DNA of 30,793 bases from Planctomycetota bacterium (lineage in GTDB: Bacteria; Planctomycetota; PUPC01): contig JAWODX010000614.1 in assembly GCA_046483085.1 (NCBI GenBank), positions 1 through 30,793 of the forward strand, in the 5' to 3' direction. The position numbers and the translations under genes were made by a program. Of this stretch, positions 1 to 30,735 are shown in pieces (the stretch's first letter is position 1; each line of letters begins with the position of its first letter). The notes beneath the pieces are model-generated. The model did not search any database. It saw nothing but the letters and a program-made list of their open reading frames with translations, and had not been told where the DNA came from.

Positions 1-3000
1 TGGCCGACCTTCGTCCCGTGGCCCATGGCCCAGACCTTGATCTTCCAGCCGGTCAGGTTCTCGGGCATCGTCAGGTCGACCGTCGCTGTCCCGTCCTTGT
101 CGGTCGTCAGGTTGGCGACCCAGAGCGCGGTGTCGGCGAACTTCTTGCGCACCGTCGGCTCGACCTTCTCGGCCTCCCCGCGGCCGCCGCCCGCCTCACC
201 CGCAGCCTCCTTGTCGGCCGCGAAGGCGACCCCGCGGTCGGCCTTGCGCCGCGCGTTCTTGGCGGCCGGCGCCGCCCCGAGCTGGCGGCCCTTCGCCTTC
301 TCCTCTCTTACAGCGCCGTCCCTGGATTCGCGTTCTCCGCCCTCCGTCGGTTGCTGGGGCATGTCGGCGACGGACCGGCCGAAGACGCCGAGGAAGCTCA
401 TCCCCGGTTTCTTCGGCGGGGTGAGGTTCCCGCCGCCCCGCTGCAGCGACGACTCGGTCCGCGGGTGGTGCCGTCGGCGCCACTTCCAGAAGAACGCCTT
501 GATCTCGGGCACGTTGCTGCCGCCGGAGATGTACTCGACCGACTTGTCGTAGACTGTCAGCGCGAGCGATCCGACGAACGGGTCGCCGTCGATGTCGGTC
601 ACCGTCAGGTCGATCTCGGCCTCCTCGCCCGGTTTGCACTCGGACTTCGACGGTTTCGCCTCGACCTTGAGCACGCGCTTCTCGGGCGGGACGATGATCT
701 CGCGGACGGCGGTGTGCAGGTCGCCGCCGCTGATCGTGACCGCCTCGACGAAGAAGTTCGGCATGTCTTTCTTCGTGACCGCGATCTGCTGCTCGACGCT
801 CTTGCCATCGAGCCGCAGCACCTCCGGCTTCAGGTAGATCCCGTTCGTCGGGCGGGTGAAGAGCAGGACGGTGCTGCCCAGCCGGTTCGTGTTGACGCGG
901 AGCTGGACCTTCTCGCCCGGCTCGTACTCCTTCTTGTCGGGCACGAGCTCGACGGCGTTGAAACGGAAGTCGGAGCCGTCGAACCCCTCGCCGGTGATGA
1001 TGAAGATGTAGCCGCCCTCGATGGTGTGGTCCTTCGCGTCGGTCACCTTGTACGAGAGGCGGTACTGGCCGGGCTTGTGCGCGGCCAGCTTCTTCTCGGC
1101 GCGGCCCTCCGGGTTCGTGTCGAGCTCCCAGCTCTGGACCTTCTTCTCGGTCGGCTCACCCTTCTCGTTGTAGGTGAGCGAATAGAGCGTCAGCTCGCCG
1201 TCGCCCTTCACCGGCTGCTTCGAGAGGGTCTGTGCGTTGAAGCTGGCGTGGATGGTGTCGCCCACGCGGTAGTGCCCGCGGTCGACCCAGGCGTAGACCT
1301 CGAACGGTTTGCGCGCGACCATCACGTTGCCTGTCCCGACGATCGTCCGCCGCGACTGGTCGGTCACCTCGGCGGTGATGGTGTACTTGTGGTCGGTGTC
1401 GCCGTGCACCTCCTTGGCGATGCTCGTGTCGATCTCGACCTCGACGGTCCCGTCAGGCCCGATCTCGACCTCGTTCTCGCTCACCAGCTCGGGCGGGCTC
1501 TGGCGCGTGCCGTACCACCACCAGCGCGGCGCCTTGCAACCCCACCGGCCCCAGCCGGGATACCACGCGTAGTCATACGCGAACCACCAGTAGCCGGGCT
1601 CGTAGAACCAGTCCCAGTACATCACCGGGTACCAGCGTGCGTCGTAGTCGCGCCGCTCGACCTTGTACTTGACCTTCGCCTTGGTGACGGCGGCGCCGAA
1701 GTAGTACTTCGCCTTGACCGTCGCCGTGATCTTTTCGCCGAGCATCACCGGCTCGGTCGGCGCGTCGACGGTCACCTCGAACTCCGGCTTCTTGTACTCC
1801 TCGACGCGGAATGCGTTCCCGCCGATCCGGTGGTCCGGGTCACGCCACAGCGACAGGTAGTAGCGGCCGAGCGCGGCCCCGTCGGGCAGCTTGTACGAGC
1901 CGTCGAGCCCGCCGTACTCGTCGGTCGTGATCTTCTTCTCGAAGACCTTCTCGCCCTTCGCGTCGTTGATCCGCACGATGTACGTCTTGCCGGCGAAGTG
2001 CGATGCGTCGCCCATGTCGTACTGCGCGTGCCGGATCCACATCTTGAACTTCACCGTGTGCTCGGGCCGATAGACCGGGCGGTCGGTGATGATGAATGTG
2101 CGCGTCCGCTTGTACTCGGGGTCGTGATAGCTTCCGTACCACACGCTCGTGTAGCCGTGGTGTGCGAAGCGGCCGCCGTCGGTCCGCGCGATCAGGATCC
2201 ACCGGTAGTGCGGCGGCATATCCTTCTTGTTGAGGATGATCTGGCCGTCGGCGTCGGTGTGGCGGGCGAAGTTCTCGATGTCGATCCGGTAGTTCCGGCC
2301 GCCGGTGTACTTCTGGCGGTAGCCGAAGAACTCGACGTTCGCCTTGGGCACCGGCTTGCCCGTGACGGAGTCGGCCACGTAGATGTACACCGCCTGGTCC
2401 AGGTGCTTCTTCACGATCACCGTGTCGTTCAGCCAGAGGACGATGTAGCACGTGTTCCCGCCCTTCATCTGCGCCCGGAGCAGATACGCGCCGGGGTCCT
2501 GCAGCGGCGTGGTCACCGTCATCCGCTTGTCGAAGTGATGGGGCCGCGGCTCGAGGTCGAGCGACCACTGCGCGACCTGCTCCCCGACGTACTTCTTCTG
2601 GTTCTTCGTCACCAGCCGATAGCCGAGGTTCCGGATCTGGACCTTCTGCCAGTCGAGCCGGTTCGGCTTCTTCCGGATGTACGCCTTCACGTCGTCGAGC
2701 AGCGTCTCGACCTTGACCGCGTGCGCGGTGAAGGTCACCTTCTCGCCGTTCCGGAATCGGAACGGGACGGTCGCCCCGGCCCCGCCGCCCGCCGGCTGCT
2801 GCATCTTGTGCTCGAACATGCCCCACGGGTCCACGATCTGGCTCAGCCGCTTCTTCTTCCAGTTGCGGTTACCCGGGCCATAGGTCTTGATGTTCTCCCG
2901 CCAGGTCTCCGCCGCCGTCTCGTACTGCCGCCGGTTCTCGAAGAGCTGCGCCAGCTTGCCCAGCGCCTGCTCGCCGTAGCTGGTCTTGCCGGCCGCTACG

Positions 3001-4055
3001 ACTTGCCGGTAGATCTTGATGAAGTTGTGCTCGTCGGGCAGCTCGAACCGCTTGATCCCGGTCGCCAGCTTCGCGATCGTCTCGGTCTGCTTCAGTGTGT
3101 GGAGCTGGAGGATCCCGCCGGCCTTCTCCTTGTCGTCGCCCGCGGGCGAGCGCCGGAAGTACCAGCCGTAGCTCCGCATCGTCTGGCAGCCGAACTGCCC
3201 GTGCAGGAAGTCGGCCCGGATCATCCGCACCTGGTTGGCGAGCCCCGGGTCGAGCTCCTTCGCCTGGAGCAGGAGGAACCGCCAGCGCTCGCCGTCGTTC
3301 GCCGCCGCCTCCCAGCTCTCGGGGACGCTGTAGTAGACCGGCTCGCCGTCGGGGCCGACCGGGGCGCCCTTGTTGCGATTGTGGTAATAATAGTAGTAGC
3401 CGCGCCCGTCGTCGTAGTCCGGCAGCTCGTCGAGGTCGGTCTTGTACTGCAGCCGCCACGCCTGGCTGTAGCCGCGGTAGACGCGGATCATCCGGGCGAA
3501 ATCGAGATGGAACTGCGCGACCGCCTTCGTGTTCTTCTCGTCCTTCGCCTCCTTCATCGCGGCGGTCATCAGTTGCATCGCGCGGACGCGGTCGCGTGCC
3601 ATCGAGTTGACGACCTTCCCGCCGCCGCGGTGCCGGCCGCGGTGATATTCGCCCGCGATCCTGTAGCCCCAGGACGGGATCCGGCTCCAGCGCGGGCAAT
3701 TCGTGTTCACCTTCTGCCCGGCGTACGTCTTCGCCGCCGCGTGGAGCAGCCGCCAGTTGTCGTCGTGCACCTTGATGACCGCCTCGCGGAACGCGTCGAC
3801 CTCGTCCACCCGGTTCAGGTGCCGCAGGCACTGGAGCGCGACGTCGAGGTCGCCGCCGACCTGCATCGGGTCCGAGTCCTCGTCGAGCAGGATCTTGCGG
3901 TAGAGCTGGTAGGCGTCGCGGTAGTTCCCGTTCTTGTACGCCCTGAACGCCTTCGTTCGGGCGTCCTCGTGCGGCCCCTTCGCCGCGAACGAGACGGCGA
4001 CCGCGCCGGCGACCATCACGACCAGGACCAGAGCGACCAGCTTCCGTGTCTTCAT
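1..4055 (-). CDS. Alpha-2-macroglobulin family (MG2/A2M domain) secreted protein, >1351 aa, 3' end outside the window
   Basis: Absent from the ORF track because it has no stop in the window; translated by hand from ATG 4055 (SD GAGGAG upstream). Signal peptide MKTRKLVALVLVVMVAGAVAVSFA. MG2 motif 'FIITDRPVYRPEHTVKFK', 'FRVEEYKKPEFEVTV', 'PDKKEYEPGEKV', and A2M-domain start 'VRKKFADTALWVANLTTDKDGTATVDLTMPENLTGWKIKVWAM'. Confidence 0.9.
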   Translation of the reverse strand, partial: MKTRKLVALVLVVMVAGAVAVSFAAKGPHEDARTKAFRAYKNGNYRDAYQLYRKILLDEDSDPMQVGGDLDVALQCLRHLNRVDEVDAFREAVIKVHDDNWRLLHAAAKTYAGQKVNTNCPRWSRIPSWGYRIAGEYHRGRHRGGGKVVNSMARDRVRAMQLMTAAMKEAKDEKNTKAVAQFHLDFARMIRVYRGYSQAWRLQYKTDLDELPDYDDGRGYYYYYHNRNKGAPVGPDGEPVYYSVPESWEAAANDGERWRFLLLQAKELDPGLANQVRMIRADFLHGQFGCQTMRSYGWYFRRSPAGDDKEKAGGILQLHTLKQTETIAKLATGIKRFELPDEHNFIKIYRQVVAAGKTSYGEQALGKLAQLFENRRQYETAAETWRENIKTYGPGNRNWKKKRLSQIVDPWGMFEHKMQQPAGGGAGATVPFRFRNGEKVTFTAHAVKVETLLDDVKAYIRKKPNRLDWQKVQIRNLGYRLVTKNQKKYVGEQVAQWSLDLEPRPHHFDKRMTVTTPLQDPGAYLLRAQMKGGNTCYIVLWLNDTVIVKKHLDQAVYIYVADSVTGKPVPKANVEFFGYRQKYTGGRNYRIDIENFARHTDADGQIILNKKDMPPHYRWILIARTDGGRFAHHGYTSVWYGSYHDPEYKRTRTFIITDRPVYRPEHTVKFKMWIRHAQYDMGDASHFAGKTYIVRINDAKGEKVFEKKITTDEYGGLDGSYKLPDGAALGRYYLSLWRDPDHRIGGNAFRVEEYKKPEFEVTVDAPTEPVMLGEKITATVKAKYYFGAAVTKAKVKYKVERRDYDARWYPVMYWDWFYEPGYWWFAYDYAWYPGWGRWGCKAPRWWWYGTRQSPPELVSENEVEIGPDGTVEVEIDTSIAKEVHGDTDHKYTITAEVTDQSRRTIVGTGNVMVARKPFEVYAWVDRGHYRVGDTIHASFNAQTLSKQPVKGDGELTLYSLTYNEKGEPTEKKVQSWELDTNPEGRAEKKLAAHKPGQYRLSYKVTDAKDHTIEGGYIFIITGEGFDGSDFRFNAVELVPDKKEYEPGEKVQLRVNTNRLGSTVLLFTRPTNGIYLKPEVLRLDGKSVEQQIAVTKKDMPNFFVEAVTISGGDLHTAVREIIVPPEKRVLKVEAKPSKSECKPGEEAEIDLTVTDIDGDPFVGSLALTVYDKSVEYISGGSNVPEIKAFFWKWRRRHHPRTESSLQRGGGNLTPPKKPGMSFLGVFGRSVADMPQQPTEGGERESRDGAVREEKAKGRQLGAAPAAKNARRKADRGVAFAADKEAAGEAGGGRGEAEKVEPTVRKKFADTALWVANLTTDKDGTATVDLTMPENLTGWKIKVWAMGHGTKVG

Positions 4056-4118
4056 CCTGCTTCTCCTCAGGCGGATCGTTCTTCAGCCATTTGCCTTGTC
4101 TGCCACGGAGGCACGGCA

Positions 4119-4155
4119 CTGTAGCCGAGGTCCATGACCTCGGCCTTTGCTACAG
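4119..4155. repeat. REP-like hairpin in the A2M leader
   Basis: Perfect 9-bp stem GCCGAGGTC-CAT-GACCTCGGC (4124-4144) with outer CTGTAG/CTACAG arms; GTAG tetranucleotide at the stem foot. Confidence 0.6.
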
Positions 4156-4231
4156 CCGGCAGACCGCGAAATGAACACACGACACAAGTGGCCGTTCTCG
4201 CGCGCCGGGCGCACCCAACCTATCGGCTGCC

Positions 4232-4269
4232 ATTATAGACGCGGCCGGGGGCAAATGGTTCCCGAAAAA
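4232..4269 (-). promoter_or_regulatory. Candidate ECF-sigma promoter of the A2M gene
   Basis: Minus strand TTTTTCGGGAACC-N16-GTCTATAAT; near-identical motif at 5947-5984. Confidence 0.55.
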
Positions 4270-4323
4270 TCTCGGGCAGCGGGATCCGCTCTCGGATTCG
4301 GCCGTCGCAGACAGAAGTAACAG

Positions 4324-4406
4324 ACTATCTCGATACTCGGTGGGGCAGGCATTCTTGCCTGCCAGATGGCGGACAGGAATGTCCGCCCTACCTTTTTTGA
4401 GATGGT
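4324..4406. repeat. REP doublet (REPIN-like) copy 1 inside short terminal inverted repeats
   Basis: GTGG-GGCAGGCA-TTCT-TGCCTGCC-AGAT-GGCGGACA-GGAA-TGTCCGCC-CTAC (4340-4391), flanked by ACTATCTCGA / TTGAGATGGT. Further copies at 25258 and 30525. Confidence 0.85.
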
Positions 4407-4440
4407 TCCCAACTGAGTGGCCCCGGCTCCTCCGGATGGC

Positions 4441-5862
4441 TCAGGGGCCGTCGGGGCCTGTCGGCTCCTGGCTGCGCCGCCGAGCGTTGGAGCTCCAGCG
4501 TGAGAAGGCGATGACGAGCGCGGCGGCGAGGACGATGGCGACGCCGAGCCCAACCGAGAAGGGAAGGCCCGCCCGCGAATCCTCCTCGCCCGGGCGATCG
4601 GCCTGCCCCCGCCGGACATCCTCAACGCCGAGTCTCTTCAGCGCCCTGGCCGCTTCCTCGCGGACCGCGTCGCTGGGGTCATCCAGCAGGGGCCGGAGAG
4701 CCGGGATCGCCTGCTTGGCGTGAAGTCGACCGAGCGCCCTCGCAGCGGGCCGGCGCACCTGGCACGCCGTATGGTTCAACAGCCCGATGAACTTCGGGAC
4801 GGCCGCGGACGCCGCCTTCGGCCTGCGTCGGATCGCTCGCACGGCGCGCCTGATCACTCCGGCGTCCGGGTCGTCCAGGGCGGCCAGCAGCGGCCCGGTG
4901 ACCTGCCGGTCATATTTCTCGTCGAGATACGTCAGGTTGCCGGCGCAGGCGCATCTGACCGCCGGGCGCTCGTCCTTCAACCCCCTGACCAGGGCATCGA
5001 CGGCAGCGGGCGTCCGTATCTGGTTCAAGGCGCCGGCCGCGGTCTTCGCGCGGTCCGGATCCTCGAGCCACTTGACCAGCAGGGGCACGGCGTCGCCGGC
5101 CTTGGCCCTGCCCAGAGCCCACGCGGCGGTCTTCCACACCGGGTGATCGCGGTCCTCGGCCATCTTCAACAGCGGGCGGACGGCCGCCCGAACGGCCTTG
5201 CGGCGCTCCTTGTCGTGATACCCGTAGTGGAAGAGCGCCTTGATCGCCGCGCGTTGAACCCCGACATCCGGATCCTCGATCCTCGCGAGAAGGGGCTCGA
5301 AGAAGTGCCGGGAATGGCGACCCGATGCGTGGCCCATGCCCCGGACCGCGGCGAGGCGGATGTGGGGGTCCTCGTGCGAAGCCGCCTCCTTCAACCGGGC
5401 GACGGCGCGGGGGACGAAAAAGCGGCCGAGAGCGCGGAGGGCGGCGGCGCGTTCCGCTTGGTCCTCCTTCCGGGTGGCCGCGACGACGCGTCCGAGCAAT
5501 TGCTCCGCTCTTGCGGACCTGTCCCCCGCCTCGTCCGACAGGTCTCTCGTCTCGATCGGGTCACGCCTAAGCACGGAGCCGAGCTCGTCCAGCGCCGCGA
5601 GCCGGACCTTCGGGGAGCGATCGTCGAGTACGCTCCCGAGCGCCTCGGCCGCAGGCCGAGTGTCCAGGTCGCTCTCGGCCTCCCCGAGACCTCGGACGGC
5701 ACTCAGCCGATCGGCGACCCTGCGGCTGGCCAGCTTCTTCGCGAGCTCCTCGACCCGAATCCTCCGCGGCGGCTCGGCCTCGCAGGCCGCCGCCGTCCCT
5801 GCCGGCCCCAGCAACGCGAGAAGACAAAGTACCGCCCGGCACGTCCCGACCGCTCTCGTCAT
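4441..5862 (-). CDS. HEAT-repeat (PBS-lyase-like) protein with N-terminal signal peptide and C-terminal membrane anchor
   Basis: Repeated HEAT motifs ('LDDRSPKVRLAALDELG', 'IEDPDVGVQRAAIKAL', 'LKDERPAVRCACAGNL', 'LDDPSDAVREEAARAL'). Start moved to ATG 5862 (MTRAVGTCRAVLCLLALLGPAGTAAAC), purine-rich SD. Hydrophobic tail 'LPFSVGLGVAIVLAAALVIAF' followed by RRR. Confidence 0.8.
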   Translation of the reverse strand: MTRAVGTCRAVLCLLALLGPAGTAAACEAEPPRRIRVEELAKKLASRRVADRLSAVRGLGEAESDLDTRPAAEALGSVLDDRSPKVRLAALDELGSVLRRDPIETRDLSDEAGDRSARAEQLLGRVVAATRKEDQAERAAALRALGRFFVPRAVARLKEAASHEDPHIRLAAVRGMGHASGRHSRHFFEPLLARIEDPDVGVQRAAIKALFHYGYHDKERRKAVRAAVRPLLKMAEDRDHPVWKTAAWALGRAKAGDAVPLLVKWLEDPDRAKTAAGALNQIRTPAAVDALVRGLKDERPAVRCACAGNLTYLDEKYDRQVTGPLLAALDDPDAGVIRRAVRAIRRRPKAASAAVPKFIGLLNHTACQVRRPAARALGRLHAKQAIPALRPLLDDPSDAVREEAARALKRLGVEDVRRGQADRPGEEDSRAGLPFSVGLGVAIVLAAALVIAFSRWSSNARRRSQEPTGPDGP

Positions 5863-5946
5863 TCTGCCCCTTCCCTTCCCCAGCGCCCGGCGCGCAAGAA
5901 CGTCCTTGCCGGGTGCCTCGATGCGACCGGCGCACTTCTTCCGGGG

Positions 5947-5984
5947 ATATAGACGCGGGGGCGGCCCCATCGGTTCCGAAAAAC
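5947..5984 (-). promoter_or_regulatory. Candidate ECF-sigma promoter of the HEAT-repeat gene
   Basis: Minus strand TTTTTCGGAACC-N17-GTCTATATC; matches 4232-4269. Confidence 0.55.
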
Positions 5985-6073
5985 CGCGCCCTGGCCGCAG
6001 GCGTTTCATTCCGGCGCCCGCCTGGCCTTCCCCCGGCCCCTGCGCCTGTCCGGCGGTTCACCGGGAGTCGGTA

Positions 6074-6781
6074 TCACGTGCTCGGGGCTTCGTCCGCCAG
6101 CGCCTCCCGCAGCGCGGCCCGCGCCAGCAGGCGGGTCGAGTCGAGCACGGGCAGCGGGCAGTCGTCGGGATCGACGAGCAGCGGGATCTCGGTGCAGCCG
6201 AGGACGACCGCGTCGCAGCCGCGATCCCTCATCTCGGCGATGACCTGGTTGAAGAACCGCCGCGAGTCCTCGGTGAAGATCCCGTTCACCAGCTCGCCGA
6301 AGATGATCCCGTCGATCCGCTCGCGGTCCGGCTCGTCCGGGATCTCGCAGGCGATGTCGAACTCCGCGAGCGCGTCGGGATAGACCGGCCCGGTCACGAG
6401 GTACTTCGTGCCGGTGATGGCGAGGGTCGAGAAACCCCGCCGGCGGGCCTCGCGGCCGACCTCCGTCGCGATGTGCAGCCACGGGATCGGGCTCTCGTCG
6501 GCGACGCGGTCGAACGCCTCGTGGATCGTGTTGTCGGGGCAGACGGCGAAGTCGGCGCCGATGGCCGCGAGCTTGCCCGCCGACGAGAGCATCAGGTCCG
6601 CCACCGCGTCCCAGTCGCCCGCCCGGATGTGGACCATGTACTCGGCGAGCGGGTGGGTGTGCATCGAGACCTCGGGATGCATGTGCTCGCCCATTTTCGC
6701 GGGCGCCTCGGCGCAGAGCGTGCGGTAGCACAGCGCGGCGCCCTCGGCGCTGCACGCGACGATTCCGATGTGTTTCGCCAT
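6074..6781 (-). CDS. Aspartate/glutamate racemase family protein
   Basis: ATG 6781 with SD GAGGAG. 'HIGIVACSAEGAALCY', 'GADFAVCPDNTIH', 'DAVVLGCTEIPLL', 'LPVLDSTRLLA'; 235 aa. Confidence 0.88.
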   Translation of the reverse strand: MAKHIGIVACSAEGAALCYRTLCAEAPAKMGEHMHPEVSMHTHPLAEYMVHIRAGDWDAVADLMLSSAGKLAAIGADFAVCPDNTIHEAFDRVADESPIPWLHIATEVGREARRRGFSTLAITGTKYLVTGPVYPDALAEFDIACEIPDEPDRERIDGIIFGELVNGIFTEDSRRFFNQVIAEMRDRGCDAVVLGCTEIPLLVDPDDCPLPVLDSTRLLARAALREALADEAPST

Positions 6782-6813
6782 GGGTCTCCTCTCATTGAAC
6801 TGTTGGGAAGCGA

Positions 6814-7234
6814 GCGGGGAGAACCCCCTCTTGAAAAAGGGCCGTTCTCCCCGCACCCCTTTCCCCGAAAACTTCCGGGAGATGCCCTTCCGGCTCCGCC
6901 GGAATGACATCTCCTGCCGTGCTTTCCCGGGAAGGAAAAGCCAGGGATCCGCCTCTGTCCGGAGTTCGTGAAGTCGGTGCTGAATTCTGCTCCCTCTGCG
7001 AATCCTACGGTCTCGCCAGTCAGGAATTCGGAGCGGTTGCCGTACCGTTTGGAATTTGCGATTTCGGATTTGTTTGTCATTTGGCGCTTCAGATTTCGAA
7101 TTTGCCGCACCAACCCTGCTCCCCGCCCCCCTCTTCCTCAAAACTCGGAGGAGATGCGGTTGCTAAACCGCATCTCCACAGAAGTTCTTGGAGGGGGTGC
7201 GGGGGAAACCCTCTTTCAAGAAGGGTCCCCCGCA
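6814..7234. repeat. Composite intergenic cluster of palindromic repeats
   Basis: Inverted pair of related ~55-60 bp hairpin elements (6814-6874, 7182-7234); two GGAGATG...CATCTCC hairpins (6878-6914, 7150-7177); 7-bp tandem units 7051-7103. Confidence 0.75.
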
Positions 7235-7288
7235 TTCCATTAGCCATACATGCGTCAATAATCCTGTCCAGCCGACAACCCGACCGGC

Positions 7289-8224
7289 TCACTTCTTCCC
7301 GTCGGGCACGTCGCCGCCCTGGGACACCGGCCGGCCGTGGTAGTATTTCTTGAACAGCGCCTTCGTCGGCTTGATACGGAACCGCGTGGACGCGTACGGA
7401 TACCGCCCGCGGGAGACGGGGACCGTGAGGTTGTTGGTGAACGTGGTCGTGTGGTCGCAGATGCTCCCGGCCTGGAACTTGAGCCGGAGGAGGCTGAGCA
7501 TCGCCTCCTCGTTGTCGACGAACCGCCGCCCGTGCCGGTCGAGGTCCTTGTGGCTGAACGACAACAGCGTGATCGTCCGGCCGCCCGACCGCCGGTGGCG
7601 GATGGTCCCGCCGGGGATCGGCTTGGTCGCGGTGAGCTTCACCGTGACCTGCAGGCCCTTCATCAGGTCGGCGAAGACCGGCCGGAGGTCGCGGAGCATC
7701 TGCGACTCGGCGGGGGTCGGCTCCGGCGGCGGCTCCTCATCCTTCCCCCCGCGCCGCTCCTCCGGCTCGGCGGGGACCAGCGCCATCATCAGGTCGCCCA
7801 CTTTGTGGAAGGAATGGACGCGCCGGTAGATCGGCGTGAACCGGAGCCGCATCTTCCGGCCGGGCCGGCCGTACTGGACGTACGGGTTGAGGAGCCGCAG
7901 GTCCTCGATGTTCGGGATCTTGTACACCGCCCGGCTCTCGCGGGCGCCGTTCTGCAGGTCCTCGACCTCGTGGCGGACCAGCCGGCAGCCCCGGCCCATC
8001 TGCTTCGCCCGGAGCAGCGCGTGCTTCCTGTCGAGCAGCCGGACGAGCTTCTGCTCCTTCGGCGTGCCCTGATCGAGCTGGCGCAGCGGCCGCGAGAAGC
8101 GCACGCGCTCGCGGATCGTCGCCCCGCCGTCCTCGTGCATGGTGATCGACTGCTCGATCTGCAGGCAGCCCGCAGAGGCCGCCACGACGAGCAAGAACAC
8201 AATCCGCGTGGCCGTCTTGATCAT
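7289..8224 (-). CDS. Hypothetical lipoprotein
   Basis: ATG 8224 with GGAG SD. Lipobox 'LLVVAASAG-C'; mature start 'CLQIEQSITMHEDGGATI' resembles DUF3153/LppM-type N-termini (unverified); 311 aa. Confidence 0.7.
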   Translation of the reverse strand: MIKTATRIVFLLVVAASAGCLQIEQSITMHEDGGATIRERVRFSRPLRQLDQGTPKEQKLVRLLDRKHALLRAKQMGRGCRLVRHEVEDLQNGARESRAVYKIPNIEDLRLLNPYVQYGRPGRKMRLRFTPIYRRVHSFHKVGDLMMALVPAEPEERRGGKDEEPPPEPTPAESQMLRDLRPVFADLMKGLQVTVKLTATKPIPGGTIRHRRSGGRTITLLSFSHKDLDRHGRRFVDNEEAMLSLLRLKFQAGSICDHTTTFTNNLTVPVSRGRYPYASTRFRIKPTKALFKKYYHGRPVSQGGDVPDGKK

Positions 8225-20573: not shown

Positions 20574-21182
20574 ATGGGGATTGAGTGGCTGATTGTGGCG
20601 CTGATCGCGTTCATGCTCATGGCGGGCCTGATCGCCGTGGAGACACGCGACCTGCTCAGCTCGGTGATCGCCGTGGGCGCCGCCGGCTTCGCGCTCAGCA
20701 TCATCGACCTGCTGGTCGGGGCGCCCGACCTCGCGATCACCCAGGTCGTGGTCGAGGTCATCGCCCTGGTCCTGCTCATCCGCATGGTGGTGACGCGCGA
20801 GGACACGTCGTCGATCCGTTCGCGCGACGTACTCCGCACCGGGGCCATGCTCCTGGCCGCGGGGCTGATCCTCGTCGGCGCATACTTCGCCGTCCGGCCG
20901 GGCGACGAGGGCACGTTGCCGCCGTTCGGCGACCCGGTCCTGGCTCGGGATGCCGTGCGCGGGGACGACCAGGGCGTGAGCGAGGGATACCTGAGAAAGA
21001 CGGAGGAGCAGACGGGGGCGGCGAACGCGGTGACCGCGGTGCTGCTCGACTACCGGGCCTACGACACGCTGGGCGAGGCGACGGTGATCTTCGTCTCGAT
21101 CCTCGGTGTGTACGCCGTGCTCCGCCGGGTGGGCCGCAAGCGCGGTGAGGCGGGCGAAGAGAGCTGCGAGGGAGAGGCATGA
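20574..21182 (+). CDS. DUF4040 plus MnhB-N fusion (MbhD+MbhE-like; corresponds to the MrpA C-terminal part)
   Basis: 'GAPDLAITQVVVE' and 'NAVTAVLLDYRAYDTLGEATVIF'. Confidence 0.88.
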   Translation: MGIEWLIVALIAFMLMAGLIAVETRDLLSSVIAVGAAGFALSIIDLLVGAPDLAITQVVVEVIALVLLIRMVVTREDTSSIRSRDVLRTGAMLLAAGLILVGAYFAVRPGDEGTLPPFGDPVLARDAVRGDDQGVSEGYLRKTEEQTGAANAVTAVLLDYRAYDTLGEATVIFVSILGVYAVLRRVGRKRGEAGEESCEGEA

Positions 21183-21631
21183 TGAGCAGCAAGAGCGGCA
21201 TGACCTTGATCGTGAAGAACACGGCGCGGCTGGTGGCCGGGTTCATTGCCGTGTTCGGGGTGTACCTGGCGGCGACGGGGCACCTGTCGCCCGGCGGCGG
21301 GTTCCCCGGCGGGGTGATCCTGGCGGCGGCGGCCGTGTTGGTCGTGCTGGCATTCGGGAAGGACTTCGCCGGGCGCCTGCTGCGCGAGCCGCAGTGCCAC
21401 GTGTGGGACGCGGCGGGGGCGGGCGCGTTCCTGCTCGTCGCCCTGTGCGGCTATTTCGCCGGTGGGTTCTTCGCCAACTTCCTGCCTGCCGGCCAGGTCC
21501 ACACGCTGCAGTCGGCGGGGAGCATCCCGCTCTCCAACCTGGCGATCCTGGTCAAGGTGGGCGCGGGGCTCGCCGGCGCCTTCCTCGCCTTGTCCGCGTT
21601 TCGACTCGCTCTACCGAAGGGAGACGAGTGA
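21179..21631 (+). CDS. mnhB: Na+/H+ antiporter subunit B (MbhF-like)
   Basis: 'GHLSPGGGFPGGVILA'; ATGA overlap. Confidence 0.88.
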   Translation: MMSSKSGMTLIVKNTARLVAGFIAVFGVYLAATGHLSPGGGFPGGVILAAAAVLVVLAFGKDFAGRLLREPQCHVWDAAGAGAFLLVALCGYFAGGFFANFLPAGQVHTLQSAGSIPLSNLAILVKVGAGLAGAFLALSAFRLALPKGDE

Positions 21632-23508: not shown

Positions 23509-23994
23509 ATGAAGTGGCTGATGTGCCTGTTGGCCGTGTTCGCCCTGTGGGTCCTCCTGTTCTGGTCGGTGGACGCGTGGGTGCTGGGCAGCGGCGCCTT
23601 CTTCGCCCTGCTCGTCGCCACCTTCCTCGGCGAGATCTACCCCGACCGCATGGACCGGGTGCTCGACCCCCGGCGCGTCTTCTTCTTCCTCGTCTACCTC
23701 CCCTACTTCTTCTACTGGTGCCTCAAGGCGAACCTCGACGTGGCCCTGCGCGTCATCCACCCCGATGTCCCCATCCGCCCGGGCATCGTCAAGGTCAAGA
23801 CCTCGCTCCGGACCGACATGGCCAAGACGTTCCTCGCCAACAGCATCACTCTCACGCCCGGCACACTCACCGTGGACATCGACGGGGACGACGTGTACGT
23901 GCACTGGATCAACATCGACACCGACGATGTGGAGCAGCGGACGAGCGAGATCTGCGGCCGGTTCGAGCCGCTGCTGCGGAGGATTTTCGAATGA
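23509..23994 (+). CDS. mnhE: Na+/H+ antiporter subunit E (MbhA-like)
   Basis: 'ANLDVALRV..P..PIRPGIV', 'LANSITLTPGTLTVD', 'YVHWI'. Confidence 0.92.
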   Translation: MKWLMCLLAVFALWVLLFWSVDAWVLGSGAFFALLVATFLGEIYPDRMDRVLDPRRVFFFLVYLPYFFYWCLKANLDVALRVIHPDVPIRPGIVKVKTSLRTDMAKTFLANSITLTPGTLTVDIDGDDVYVHWINIDTDDVEQRTSEICGRFEPLLRRIFE

Positions 23995-24257
23995 CCCTGT
24001 TCGTACAGATCGCATTCGCCGTGCTCCTGCTCGGCTCGTTCCTCTGCCTCTACCGCATCGCCCGCGGGCCCACCCCGCCCGACCGGACCGTCGCCATCGA
24101 CATCCTCGGCACCCTCGTCGTCGGCTTCTGTTGCCTCATGGCGCTGGGCACCGACCTCGAATACTACATGAACATCGCCATCGCCTGGGCTCTCATCAGC
24201 TTCACCGGCACGCTCGCTCTGGCCAAGTACCTGGAAGGCAGATCTTACGATGATTGA
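23991..24257 (+). CDS. mnhF: Na+/H+ antiporter subunit F (MbhB-like)
   Basis: 'RIARGPTPPDRTVAID', 'SFTGTLALAKYLE'; ATGA overlap. Confidence 0.9.
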   Translation: MTLFVQIAFAVLLLGSFLCLYRIARGPTPPDRTVAIDILGTLVVGFCCLMALGTDLEYYMNIAIAWALISFTGTLALAKYLEGRSYDD

Positions 24258-24645
24258 GACGATCGCCTGCTGGATTATCGGCGTCGGCCTCGCGTTCGAC
24301 CTGTTCGGCTGCATCGGCCTGGTCCGGCTCCCCGACGTGTACAACCGCGCCCAGGCCGCCACGAAATGCGTCACGCTCGGCACCTGCATGATCCTGGTCG
24401 GCGTGGCCCTCGCCGCCGTCGGGTCGGGCAACTGGCCGATGGCCGTCAAGGCGCTCATCTGCGCCTCGTTCATCCTCCTCACCAGCCCCGTCGGCGCCCA
24501 CGCCATCTGCCGCGGCGCCTATCTCTCCGGCGTCCCCCTGTGGGAGGGGAGCGTCGAGGACGCGTTCGAGCCGAGAGCCCGCACCATCCGAACCGAAGAA
24601 ACCCAGGAAGGACCCGCCCCCGATGCGGAAACCGAAACTGCGTGA
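24250..24645 (+). CDS. mnhG: Na+/H+ antiporter subunit G (MbhC-like)
   Basis: 'GLVRLPDVYNRAQAATKCVTLG', 'TSPVGAHAICRG'. Confidence 0.9.
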   Translation: MIETIACWIIGVGLAFDLFGCIGLVRLPDVYNRAQAATKCVTLGTCMILVGVALAAVGSGNWPMAVKALICASFILLTSPVGAHAICRGAYLSGVPLWEGSVEDAFEPRARTIRTEETQEGPAPDAETETA

Positions 24646-25336: not shown

Positions 25337-25864
25337 GTGACCTCCCCCGAACCCTCCTCCCCCGACCGGTCCGAGCCCGAGCGCCTGGCCGAATGGCTGG
25401 CCGAGGTGCTCCGGCCCTCGTCGGTGATCATCGGAATCGGGGACGAGCTTCGGGGCGACGACGGAGCGGGGGTCGCCGTCGCCCGCCGGCTGGCCGAGGC
25501 CGTCCCCTGGGCGGTCGTGGTCGGCGAAAACGCGCCCGAGAACTTCACCATGAAGATCGCCGCCCGCCAGCCGACCTCCGTCCTGCTGATCGACGCCCTC
25601 CACTTCGGCGGCCGCCCCGGCGGCGTCCGCGCCCTCGACCCGGCCCAGCTCGACGGCCGCGGCATCGGCACGCACGGACCCGGGCCCGACACCTTCCTCC
25701 GCGCCCTCCGCTCGCTCCACCCCTGCCGGCAGGTCGTGCTCGGCATCCAGCCGCTCGACACGAGCTTCGGCGAGGGCCTGACCGAGCCCGTCGCCGACGC
25801 TGTCGACGCCGTCGTCCGCGCATTCGAGCTCTGCGCCGAACGTCGTCGGCCCGGAGAGCGCTGA
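25337..25864 (+). CDS. hycI: Hydrogenase maturation endopeptidase (HycI family)
   Basis: 'IGIGDELRGDDGAG', 'GENAPENF', 'VLLIDA', 'GTHG', 'LGIQP...FGEGLTEPV'. Confidence 0.88.
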   Translation: MTSPEPSSPDRSEPERLAEWLAEVLRPSSVIIGIGDELRGDDGAGVAVARRLAEAVPWAVVVGENAPENFTMKIAARQPTSVLLIDALHFGGRPGGVRALDPAQLDGRGIGTHGPGPDTFLRALRSLHPCRQVVLGIQPLDTSFGEGLTEPVADAVDAVVRAFELCAERRRPGER

Positions 25865-28067: not shown

Positions 28068-29225
28068 ATGACAAACCGTGAGCGGGCGATGGCCGTCCTG
28101 CACGGCGAGCCGGTCGACCGCCTGCCGCTCGTCCATTTCGGGTTCTGGCGCGGCGAGACGCTGCACAAGTGGGCGGCGGAGGGGCACGTCGGCGAGCACA
28201 TCGCCCGGGAGTGGTCGGACGGCAACCCGGCGGACCTCGAGGTGACCGAGCTGCTCGGGTTCGACTTCAACTGGCAGAGCGTCTTCCAGCCGGGCCGCGG
28301 GCCGCGCCCGGGGTTCGAGCCGGAGGTGGTGGCCGAGCTGCCCGACGGCTCGAAACACGTCCGCGACACCACCGGCGTGGTCACGCTCGAGCGGCCCGGC
28401 GCCGGCTCCATCCCCCCGCACGTCGACCACCTGCTCAAGGATCGGGCGTCGTGGGAGGAACACTACAGGCGGCGATACCAGTGGCACGAGGAGCGGGTCA
28501 CCAAGGCGATGGTCCGCGCCAGCGACGAGTTCCTCCGCTGGGACCACGGCGGGCTCGAGTTCCTCCAGCGCGACCAGCGCGACTATCCCTACGGCCTCCA
28601 CTGCGGCAGCTTGTACGGCGACATCCGGTCACTGCTCGGCCTGGAGGGCGCGTGCTACCTGCAGGTGGACGACCCGCCGCTCTTCGACGAGATCATCGAC
28701 ACGGTCGCCGACGTGTGTTACCGGAACGTCGAGTACGTGCTCGAGGCGGGGGCCCGGTTCGACTTCGGCCATTTCTGGGAGGACATCTGCTTCAAGAGCG
28801 GGCCGCTCATCCGGCCGGACGTCTTCGCCGAGAAGGTCGGGCCCCATTACCGCCGCATCACCGACCTGCTGAGCGAGCACGGGATCGACATCGTCTCGCT
28901 CGACTGCGACGGGAAGATCGACGCACTCGTACCCATCTGGCTCGAGAACGGGGTGAACACCATGTTCCCCATCGAGGTCGGCGTCTGGGGCGCGAGCATC
29001 GAGCCCTGGCGGCGGGAGTACGGCGAGGAGCTGCGCGGCGTCGGCGGCGTGGACAAACGGGTGTTCGCCCGGGACCGGGCGGCGGTCGACGCCGAGATCG
29101 AGCGCATCAAGCCGCTCGTCGGGCTCGGCCGATACCTCCCCTGCCCCGACCACCGGCTGGCGCCCGACGCCGAGTTCGAGCTCGTCCGCTACTACACCGG
29201 CCGGATGCGCGAGGAGTTCGGCTGA
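28068..29225 (+). CDS. Uroporphyrinogen decarboxylase (URO-D/CIMS-like) family protein of unknown substrate
   Basis: 'MTNRERAMAVL', 'GSLYGDIRSLLGLEG', 'FWEDICFKSGPLI', 'SLDCDG', 'GGVDKRV', 'YLPCPDH'. Confidence 0.85.
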   Translation: MTNRERAMAVLHGEPVDRLPLVHFGFWRGETLHKWAAEGHVGEHIAREWSDGNPADLEVTELLGFDFNWQSVFQPGRGPRPGFEPEVVAELPDGSKHVRDTTGVVTLERPGAGSIPPHVDHLLKDRASWEEHYRRRYQWHEERVTKAMVRASDEFLRWDHGGLEFLQRDQRDYPYGLHCGSLYGDIRSLLGLEGACYLQVDDPPLFDEIIDTVADVCYRNVEYVLEAGARFDFGHFWEDICFKSGPLIRPDVFAEKVGPHYRRITDLLSEHGIDIVSLDCDGKIDALVPIWLENGVNTMFPIEVGVWGASIEPWRREYGEELRGVGGVDKRVFARDRAAVDAEIERIKPLVGLGRYLPCPDHRLAPDAEFELVRYYTGRMREEFG

Positions 29226-29372: not shown

Positions 29373-29555
29373 ATGCTCGCTGGGTTCGCCTTCCGAGGGC
29401 CTCTCTTCGCCGGGCTTCCCGGCCGACGGCTGCAGCAATTCCAGGGCCCGCTTCGGGCTGCGCACGGCAGGTTTCTCCTTGAAACCGGGGCCGGGCCGCG
29501 TACACTGTGGTTCCATCAGCCGGCCCGACGGACGATCGGCAGGTGCCCATTGTGA
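29373..29555 (+). CDS. Candidate 60-aa small protein
   Basis: Strong SD GAGGAGG 5 nt before ATG 29373; stop overlaps the GTG of the next gene (GTGA). No recognisable motif. Confidence 0.3.
   Translation: MLAGFAFRGPLFAGLPGRRLQQFQGPLRAAHGRFLLETGAGPRTLWFHQPARRTIGRCPL
29479..29506 (+). promoter_or_regulatory. sigma70-type promoter for the second mnhEFG module
   Basis: TTGAAA (29479-29484), 16-bp spacer, TACACT (29501-29506). Confidence 0.55.
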
Positions 29556-29917
29556 AGGCTGTGGCGTCGCACGCCGTCAAACTCCTCGCCCCGCTCCGCT
29601 ACGTCTGGGCGCTGTGCTTCCCCGCGCTCGTCGTCTATCACTGGCTGATCGCCGCGGCCCAGGTCGTGTATCTGACCCTGCATCCCGACCTGCCGGTGCG
29701 GCCGGAAGTGGTCCGGTTTCGCACCCGGCTGACGACGCGCGCGGCGAGGGCGCTCCTGGTGTGGGCCCTGCGGCTGACGCCGGGGACGTTCGCCGTGGAG
29801 GCGGACGGCCGGGACCTGCACGTGCATTGTCTGGTCGCCGGTCGCGCCGAGCGGTCGGCGGCGGTCGACCCGGTCTGCGGCCGGTTCGAGACCCTGCTGG
29901 AACGGATCATCGAGTAG
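29552..29917 (+). CDS. Divergent, N-terminally short MnhE/MbhA paralogue
   Basis: 'HPDLPVRPEVV', 'LTPGTFAVE', 'LHVHCL', and C-terminus 'CGRFETLLERIIE' versus 'CGRFEPLLRRIFE' in the operon copy. Confidence 0.8.
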   Translation: MKAVASHAVKLLAPLRYVWALCFPALVVYHWLIAAAQVVYLTLHPDLPVRPEVVRFRTRLTTRAARALLVWALRLTPGTFAVEADGRDLHVHCLVAGRAERSAAVDPVCGRFETLLERIIE

Positions 29918-29921
29918 AGCG

Positions 29922-30188
29922 ATGGCGTGGATAGCGTGGGCTATGTTCGGCGCCTGGCTCCTGGGCGTGTTGTTGTGCCTGTGGCGGGTGTGGATGGGTC
30001 CGGGCTGGGGCGACCGGGCGGCGGCGACGCTGGTCCTGGCCGTCGTCTGTCCGGTCTTCTTCGTCATTCCGTTCGGGGGCGAAGGGCTCGGCATCTGGCG
30101 GTGGGTCGTGGCGGCCTGGCCGCTGGTGGTCGTCGCGGTCTCGCTGGCCATCGTCTGGCCCGCGGGCGGGGAGGGCTCGGATGGCTGA
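29922..30188 (+). CDS. Divergent MnhF/MbhB paralogue
   Basis: 'LLCLWRVWMGPGWGDRAAA' versus 'FLCLYRIARGPTPPDRTVA'; size and position between E and G. Confidence 0.65.
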   Translation: MAWIAWAMFGAWLLGVLLCLWRVWMGPGWGDRAAATLVLAVVCPVFFVIPFGGEGLGIWRWVVAAWPLVVVAVSLAIVWPAGGEGSDG

Positions 30189-30468
30189 TTACGTCGCCTC
30201 GGTTCTGCTGCCGCTCGGCCTGTTCCTGAACCTCGTCGGCTGCCTGGCGGTGGTCCGTATGCCCGACGCGCTGAGCCGGCTGCACGCGGGGGTGAGGTGC
30301 ACGACGCTGGGGACGTGTCTGGTGCTGGCCGGGGTGCTCTTGTTCCGGGGGATGGTCGTCGGCGGACTCGCCGCGGGGGTCTCGATGGCGTTGTTGTGGG
30401 TGTTGACCCCGGTCGCCGCCGGCTGGCTCGCCCGCGCCATCCGTTCGGATGAAACCGATCCGGACTAG
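30181..30468 (+). CDS. Divergent MnhG/MbhC paralogue
   Basis: 'VGCLAVVRMPDALSRLHAGVRCTTLGTCLVLAGV', 'LTPVAAGWLARA'. Confidence 0.8.
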   Translation: MADYVASVLLPLGLFLNLVGCLAVVRMPDALSRLHAGVRCTTLGTCLVLAGVLLFRGMVVGGLAAGVSMALLWVLTPVAAGWLARAIRSDETDPD

Positions 30469-30478
30469 CCGGGTATTT

Positions 30479-30735
30479 CACCACGAAGAGCACGAAGGCC
30501 ACGAACACACTATCTCAATAGTGGGTGGGGCAGGCATTCCTGCCTGCCAGATGGCGGACAGGAATGTCCGCACCACCTTTTGAGATAATCTCGAACCTGT
30601 CCCGGGGCGGCGTCGCCCCAGGGCCTGCCATGTGCGGCCCCTCCGGGCCTGGAGAAGCGTCTGACGGTCCGTCTCCGGCTTCAGGGGAAGGACTGATGAT
30701 CGCCGTTCTTCGTGGTCTTCGTGTACTTCGTGGTG
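30479..30735. repeat. Nested repeat: CACGAAG x3 inverted arms enclosing TIR-flanked REP doublet copy 3
   Basis: CACCACGAAGAGCACGAAGGCCACGAA (30479-30505) / TTCGTGGTCTTCGTGTACTTCGTGGTG (30709-30735); TIRs ACTATCTCAA (30509-30518) / TTGAGATAAT (30580-30589); REP doublet 30525-30576. Confidence 0.85.

Follow-up and report, generated by a model that had tools for sequence, protein, structure and literature searches.

A stand-alone MrpE/F/G-type gene triplet without the Na+-site aspartate of MrpF, downstream of a group-4 [NiFe]-hydrogenase operon in a Planctomycetota bacterium

Close to its 3′ end, contig JAWODX010000614.1 of a Planctomycetota bacterium carries three genes, E2, F2 and G2, which are related to the genes for the MrpE/F/G subunits of Mrp antiporters (MbhA/B/C of Mbh-type hydrogenases) and stand outside any Mrp-type operon in the DNA at hand. 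The window analysed here is the whole contig of 30,793 bp; it belongs to a metagenome-assembled genome (MAG) of 4.3 Mb in 651 contigs, which is 85% complete and was obtained from a freshwater sediment metagenome. We tentatively consider the triplet to be a functional member of a rare and old stand-alone gene unit that would provide an alternative, Na+-blind end cap, docking on the Mrp-type arm of a hydrogenase and closing its Na+ route. We assign a probability of roughly one in three to this reading. The component families are known; new are their occurrence as a stand-alone unit and the absence of the Na+-site aspartate throughout the family. No stand-alone or partial mrpEFG/mbhABC unit was found in the searchable literature.

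The three genes are intact and translationally coupled, with 4 nt between the stop codon of E2 and the start of F2 and an overlap of 8 nt between F2 and G2 (Table 1). Their GC content at third codon positions (GC3) is 0.90-0.91, matching that of real genes nearby. E2 scores 67.7 bits against PF01899 (cut-off 27), covering profile positions 36-145 only, and aligns to residues 57-166 of 6u8y_A (E = 1.3e-10) and to residues 51-140 of 7qru_E. G2 is recognized by PF03334 with 56.1 bits (cut-off 23.4) and matches 7qru_G with E = 3.7e-9. For F2, a Pfam search at E <= 10 gave no match, PF04066 having missed it. The protein can be aligned without gaps to F1, its counterpart from the hydrogenase operon of the window, at 28% identity, and shows three hydrophobic segments in its hydropathy profile; a profile of its family aligns without gaps, over residues 4-84, to solved MrpF chains (7qru_F, E = 8.6e-9; 6z16_F, E = 8.8e-7). 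An earlier model-made reading of the window from its letters alone (the sequence-only reading) had described three intact, coupled open reading frames homologous to mnhE/F/G, and the coordinates, the PF01899 and PF03334 matches and the profile homology of F2 bear this out.

E2 differs from a full-length MrpE in lacking transmembrane helices (TMH) 1 and 2, the dimerisation domain, and this trait is common to all members of the family. In group 1 Mrp complexes, the two N-terminal MrpE helices are the dimer interface (PMC7419157). The shortness of E2 is not a matter of start codon choice: the reading frame is open from 29483, which allows for a maximum of 144 aa, and thus there is no space for two more helices. 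In-frame alternative starts are found at 29543 and 29507. The position of the promoter-like site upstream of E2 places the translation start at 29543 or 29552 rather than at 29507. This site was found once, with 0.0 expected in shuffled sequences; in the relative L027 its -10 hexamer is identical and its -35 hexamer differs by one base. The AlphaFold2 model of E2 (predicted local distance difference test score, pLDDT, 84.6) consists of an amphipathic helix (residues 14-43) followed by a ferredoxin-like beta-alpha-beta-beta-alpha domain. When the model was searched with Foldseek, the five best PDB matches were all E subunits, among them 6z16_E (TM-score for the query, TMq, 0.79) and 7qru_E (TMq 0.74).

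At the position of Asp38 of 7qru_F (Asp35 in A. flavithermus), F2 has Leu37, and this leucine is invariant in the orphan family. All five solved F chains have the Na+-path aspartate, as do 20 of the 21 operon F proteins of relatives, the sole exception being the F protein next to P0030 (L054), which has a phenylalanine. The MrpF aspartate has been described as invariably conserved, and its replacement in A. flavithermus (D35L) abolishes Mrp activity (PMC7419157). In molecular dynamics, Na+ binds to MrpF Asp38, while the Na+ route through E, F and G is still debated (PMC9568556).

Other residues have been kept. In the GP-x3-Asp-Arg loop of F, G26, P27 and D31 are invariant in the family; F2 retains Asp31-Arg32, and Asp31 is the equivalent of B. 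pseudofirmus Asp32. The helix-breaking Pro77 in TMH3 of G2 corresponds to B. pseudofirmus Pro81 and is likewise invariant. E2 has the LTPGT motif, of which Pro-Gly (the equivalent of B. pseudofirmus Pro114) is invariant in the family, while the Thr113 equivalent is kept in this clade and is Ala in three lineages. In B. pseudofirmus, F-D32A gives no complex, and G-P81A and E-T113/P114 mutants have transport phenotypes (PMC5703873). Judging from the alignments, the orphan family has kept those residues that have been linked in B. pseudofirmus Mrp to assembly of the complex and to contact between E and G.

The sequence-only reading had listed a number of altered cation-pathway residues, comparing DRTVAID with DRAAATL in F, ATK with GVR and GAHA with AGWL in G, and NSITLTPGT with WALRLTPGT in E, as well as RLHA in G2 with RAQA in G1. 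All these motifs are present as quoted. Only the loss of the second Asp of F, which is family-wide and documented, retains its weight. The change from ATK to GVR amounts to a conservative Lys-to-Arg replacement confined to this clade, with Lys in the other members; the His of GAHA varies even between the MrpG chains of solved structures, and at the His position of RLHA the orphan family has H, S or G.

The family is very rare. An exhaustive HMMER search with E2 in 1.84 billion cluster representatives retrieved only three other short E clusters (42-45% identity), and in a profile search of 5.8 billion clusters (90% identity) no more than six belonged to the family, with scores of 148-203 bits against 113 bits for the next match. 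All six stem from uncultured sediment or mat bacteria. The orphan triplet, for which a search in related genomes had been proposed as a check, occurs on metagenome contigs including L027, L028, L031 and L032. E has 121-132 aa, F has 88 aa in all members having F, and the F/G overlap is constantly 8 nt, while identities between clades are as low as 38-46% (E), 28-38% (F) and 31-43% (G). Six short E-like matches (P0035, P0039, P0053, P0058, P0089 and P0145) were not accepted as family members because they keep the canonical ANSITLTPGT-type motif. The closest E matches in genomes of the same family as our bacterium were also discarded as orthologues of the orphan E, as tblastn mapping placed them in hydrogenase operons.

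The contexts of the unit were compared. The L027 DNA is 91% identical to the window, and the order URO-D-like gene, E, F, G is found there, too. On L028, E-F-G is followed by unrelated genes. On L030/L031 and on L032/L033, which are known only as 4-6 kb contigs, the order is HoxH, maturation protease, CheY-like regulator and then E-F-G; on the 3′ side there is a convergent response-regulator gene on L031 and an unrelated gene on L032. No A-D genes occur beside the unit in the sequence available from L028, L031 and L032. The absence of A-D partners, as claimed in the sequence-only reading, therefore holds upstream in the window, where the neighbour is a URO-D-like gene, and for these other family members, while the downstream side in the window is not readable. 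The 5′ DNA is known for three contexts (the window, L030/L031 and L032/L033), and in all of them a [NiFe]-hydrogenase cluster with a maturation protease lies upstream on the same strand. L030 and L031 are near-identical, with 0-1 base differences in E, the regulator and the spacer of 287 nt, but their F genes (5971-6237 and 3547-3813, respectively) differ at 17 positions, a pattern suggesting that F alone evolves fast or has recombined.

Table 1. Features of the window that are discussed in the text (positions count from the first base of the contig).
Feature	Position	Strand	Remarks
E1	23509-23994	+	PF01899, 136.7 bits
F1	23991-24257	+	PF04066, 61.8 bits; Asp kept (DRTVAID)
G1	24250-24645	+	PF03334, 82.9 bits
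URO-D-like gene	28068-29225	+	PF01208; immediate 5′ neighbour of E2
Promoter-like site TTGAAA-16-TACACT	29479-29506	+	5′ of E2; single site
E2 (short MrpE/MnhE/MbhA-type, 121 aa)	29552-29917	+	GTG start; PF01899
F2 (divergent MrpF/MbhB-type, 88 aa)	29922-30188	+	gapless alignment to F1; family-profile match to 7qru_F
G2 (MrpG/MbhC-type, 95 aa)	30181-30468	+	PF03334
MITE/REP-like insertion, 27-nt terminal inverted repeats	30479-30735		begins 10 bp past the G2 stop

The window and L027 can be aligned without gaps over 1024 bases at 90.7% identity. The alignment ends exactly at the stop codon of G2 and is free of in-frame stops and indels. The ratio of nonsynonymous to synonymous substitution rates (dN/dS) is 0.25-0.43 for the individual genes and 0.45 when they are concatenated; the latter value departs from neutrality (Fisher p = 0.0008) and points to moderate purifying selection on the triplet. 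When random substitutions were simulated at the observed density, only 6% of the simulations kept all three frames open; in nature, six lineages have them undisrupted.

These data bear on the possibility, also raised in the sequence-only reading, that the triplet is a decaying, functionless duplicate of the operon genes. Such a view could build on F2 having been missed by Pfam, on the loss of the essential Asp and of the N-terminus of E, and on a dN/dS above that of the neighbouring gene. It has to be set against frames that stay undisrupted at 9% divergence, the rarity of this outcome in neutral simulations, an architecture that six lineages share at identities as low as 28-46%, a GC3 typical of real genes, and a phylogeny that excludes a recent duplication of E1. 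The dN/dS values, the open frames and the deep conservation of the architecture together lead us to discard a decaying duplicate, which we regard as extremely improbable. A dN/dS near 1, or absence from relatives, had been named as signs of a pseudogenising duplicate. The former was not found, dN/dS being 0.45; the unit is indeed absent from the 9 same-family genomes searched, but the conclusion tied to this absence does not follow.

The origin of the unit was addressed with a maximum-likelihood tree of E proteins, which is unrooted and contains rows picked as best matches to E2. The six orphan E proteins form one clade (support 98/87), and the sister of this clade is P0030 (L053/L054), a full-length E from an operon with normal gene order. 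Next to the orphan proteins and P0030 are the operon E proteins of four same-family genomes (99/90), while E1 of this genome groups elsewhere, with another relative. As the orphan E clade is nearer to the operon E proteins of other same-family genomes than to E1, the triplet is not a recent duplicate of E1F1G1, and the tree indicates that the orphan unit descends from hydrogenase-type E-F-G genes. An F protein of 88 aa and an 8-nt F/G overlap are common to the orphan family, the operon copy of this genome and L054.

The hydrogenase operon of the window, of the group-4 [NiFe]-hydrogenase/Mrp type, is located 5′ of the triplet on the same strand and ends at 25864. It codes for the large subunit, two antiporter-like subunits, a fused MbhD/E protein, MnhB, MnhC, MnhD, E1, F1, G1, a 4Fe-4S protein and HycI. 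The MbhD/E gene occupies 20574-21182 and the MnhB gene 21179-21631. The fused MbhD/E protein has equivalents of MrpA Glu687 and Glu780 and, because these and the Asp of F1 are present, the operon's own membrane arm looks Na+-competent. The triplet begins 3.69 kb past the end of HycI, outside the operon and behind its own promoter-like site, in agreement with the 3.7 kb and the separate promoter reported from the sequence alone. The intervening stretch codes for NDK, a zinc alcohol dehydrogenase and the URO-D-like protein. The URO-D-like protein is 33% identical over its full length (E = 2e-59) to a full-length homologue encoded near the triplet on L028. In this organism the URO-D family (PF01208) has grown to 27 matches in the 4.3-Mb MAG, and one paralogue adjoins the triplet here and on L028. 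Because of this number of paralogues, the recurrence was not counted as a functional link, and the URO-D-like neighbour was not accepted as a functional partner of the triplet.

A further E-F-G set is encoded on contig C442 (L005/L063; positions 3-1540, minus strand), in the order Rex, E3, F3, G3, contig end. Rex stands for a Rex-type redox repressor gene; E3 has the full length of 173 aa, F3 has 82 aa and matches PF04066 with 70.7 bits, and G3 is cut by the contig end. The triplet, which had been called a second mnhEFG module, is additional to the operon copy but, because of the set on C442, it is not simply the second one. C442 has the appearance of an operon start with E-F-G first, as in Mbh/Mbx, and the remaining genes of this operon are absent from the assembly. 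No further antiporter-like, MnhB or MnhC genes (PF00361, PF04039, PF00420) were found in the 85%-complete assembly. In addition, contig C612 (L062) carries at 2380-8060 a complete cluster for a Hox-type bidirectional [NiFe]-hydrogenase (HoxF-like, HoxU-like, HoxY-like, HoxH and a maturation protease), followed by a gene for a CheY-like regulator. This regulator shares 63% identity with its counterpart ahead of the triplet on L031; what comes next on C612 is an amidohydrolase gene and a further URO-D paralogue in place of a triplet.

In the reading that we favour, E2, F2 and G2 would be made from their own promoter and would form a subcomplex of six transmembrane helices plus a peripheral E. 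This subcomplex would dock on the MbhD/E-MnhB side of the membrane arm of the hydrogenase, replacing E1F1G1. Once docked, it would close the Asp-dependent Na+ route, and the Na+ coupling of the hydrogenase would be changed or switched off. Such a cap is made plausible by three facts: a membrane-bound hydrogenase (MBH) devoid of MbhABC stays active, MrpE is the last subunit to join the Mrp complex (PMC5703873), and an F protein without the Asp exists in a normal operon. The P. furiosus strain without MbhABC keeps its hydrogenase activity and loses much of its Na+ dependence (PMC8415708). The idea of an exchangeable module that plugs or retunes ion coupling had already been put forward in the sequence-only reading; it is consistent with the pattern of residues lost and kept, while the docking itself is putative. 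A more far-reaching version, an ion-coupling switch by subunit exchange, seems unlikely to us: here a separately transcribed cap, naturally of the 'D35L' type and devoid of the dimerisation domain, would take the place of the canonical cap, shut the Na+ route and make a Na+-coupled respiratory hydrogenase H+-only or uncoupled on demand. A swap-in regulatory module has not been described in the complex I superfamily in the searchable literature.

Several observations weigh against a cap for the Mrp-type arm. Selection on the triplet is relaxed relative to the URO-D-like neighbour (dN/dS of 0.45 versus 0.17). The hydrogenase encoded beside the triplet on L030-L033 is of the soluble Hox type and not membrane-bound. 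On L029 (45-563), a contig of only 565 bp, a G-like gene starts 12 nt past a short E gene with no F between them; because G directly follows E in this case, F may not always be needed, or it may lie elsewhere on that genome. The orphan unit is absent from 9 same-family genomes and from about 400 genomes sampled in the phylum. As many of the searched phylum genomes carry the same hydrogenase operon, their matches being the E genes of that operon, the unit is not a general accessory of this enzyme. Finally, the triplet sequence was matched in none of the RNA runs searched.

The main alternative, which we consider possible, although on the unlikely side, is that E2F2G2 is an autonomous small membrane complex that is independent of an Mrp-type arm and acts as an anchor or sensor for a hydrogenase or for redox signalling, or as a small conduit for ions or solutes. 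On all family contigs the unit stands alone, and in two deep clades it follows a soluble Hox-type hydrogenase, its protease and a CheY-like response regulator. An F that has lost the Na+-binding Asp and an E that has lost its dimerisation helices would fit an altered role. On the other hand, among 80 named genomes that share the same response-regulator cluster, none has the triplet within 8 kb, and in our genome the cluster on C612 leads into the amidohydrolase gene instead. An autonomous complex would also leave the retained Mrp-assembly residues unexplained, and the literature searched revealed no E/F/G proteins with an autonomous function.

A very unlikely explanation is that the triplet represents the start of a larger Mbh/Mbx/Mrp-type operon, with E-F-G first as in Pyrococcus, which continues past the contig end. 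The contig stops 325 bp past G2, the MAG is incomplete, E-F-G-first operons do exist, and the Rex-E3-F3-G3 set on C442 is likewise cut by a contig end. Other family members, however, have convergent (L031) or unrelated genes (L028, L032) after G, and the assembly lacks further PF00361, PF04039 and PF00420 genes. In the window, a repeat has been inserted 10 bp past the stop codon, and the remaining 325 bp do not contain a plausible start of a D/E-type gene. This repeat resembles a miniature inverted-repeat transposable element (MITE) or a repetitive extragenic palindrome (REP). It has terminal inverted repeats of 27 nt (CACCACGAAG...) and a core at 30486-30616. The MAG contains more than 40 copies of the 85-110-bp repeat core, which are 86-96% identical and lie on contigs C631, C189, C612 and more than 35 others, and the word depth in the source run is 2500-4100 at 30444-30631 as compared to about 33 in the flanks. 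L027 lacks the element at the equivalent position. The contig end lies within the high-copy repeat, and DNA contigs aligned to the 3′ end gave no extension, as every piece stops in this repeat. The 3′ flank of G2 cannot be read in the window itself because the contig ends in a high-copy repeat where assemblies break.

Among the subunits of Mrp antiporters and Mbh-type hydrogenases, E, F and G are those understood least. With a natural E-F-G set that selection has maintained, roles of these subunits beyond Na+ binding, and the exchangeability of caps, can be tested. Should the set dock on the hydrogenase arm, it would be a case of ion coupling regulated through the replacement of subunits; should it work alone, it would define a new kind of minimal membrane complex with its origin in the complex I superfamily. 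The general importance is limited by the rarity of the family with its six clusters.

Among the known systems, MbhA/B/C and MbxA/B/C of P. furiosus (6cfw, 6u8y) have the same three subunit types with the same folds and are also linked to hydrogenase genes. G2 matches 6cfw_C and 6u8y_C, the F family profile matches 6u8y_B and 6cfw_B, and the best sequence match of E2 is 6u8y_A. In P. furiosus, E-F-G form a peripheral unit, without which the remaining enzyme is still active (PMC8415708). The triplet differs in not being encoded together with MbhD-N and in the absence of TMH1-2 from E2. Unlike F2 with its leucine, MbhB and MbxB keep the Asp (DRVVAVD and DRLVAVD).

Similarly, F and G are full-length homologues of the group 1 Mrp subunits (B. 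pseudofirmus, 7qru; A. flavithermus, 6z16), to which E is homologous over the amphipathic helix and the ferredoxin-like domain. The equivalents of F Asp32-Arg33, G Pro81 and E Thr113-Pro114 are kept as in group 1. In contrast to these antiporters, there are no adjacent mrpA-D genes and no E dimerisation domain, and the replacement of F Asp38 by Leu is the same change as the inactivating D35L (PMC7419157). A short E that likewise lacks the two N-terminal helices and has about 120 aa is known from the group 2 Mrp of Dietzia sp. (7d3u; 7d3u_E has 121 aa; PMC9568556). Its similarity to E2 is weak (E = 0.028, TMq 0.47), however, and Dietzia has a full mrp operon and an MrpF which keeps the Asp (DRAIAAD).

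The L053/L054 operon, which codes for the nearest full-length relative of the orphan E, resembles the triplet in its F of 88 aa, its 8-nt F/G overlap and the replacement of the Asp by a hydrophobic residue, in this case Phe. On L054 (587-853), an otherwise canonical MrpF has DRAVALF in place of the Na+-path Asp. Unlike the triplet, this operon has E, F and G in their normal place between the genes for an antiporter-like subunit and a 4Fe-4S protein, its E is full-length with 172 aa, and its F passes PF04066. The Phe-bearing F in this normal operon implies that caps without the Asp can be encoded within such operons.

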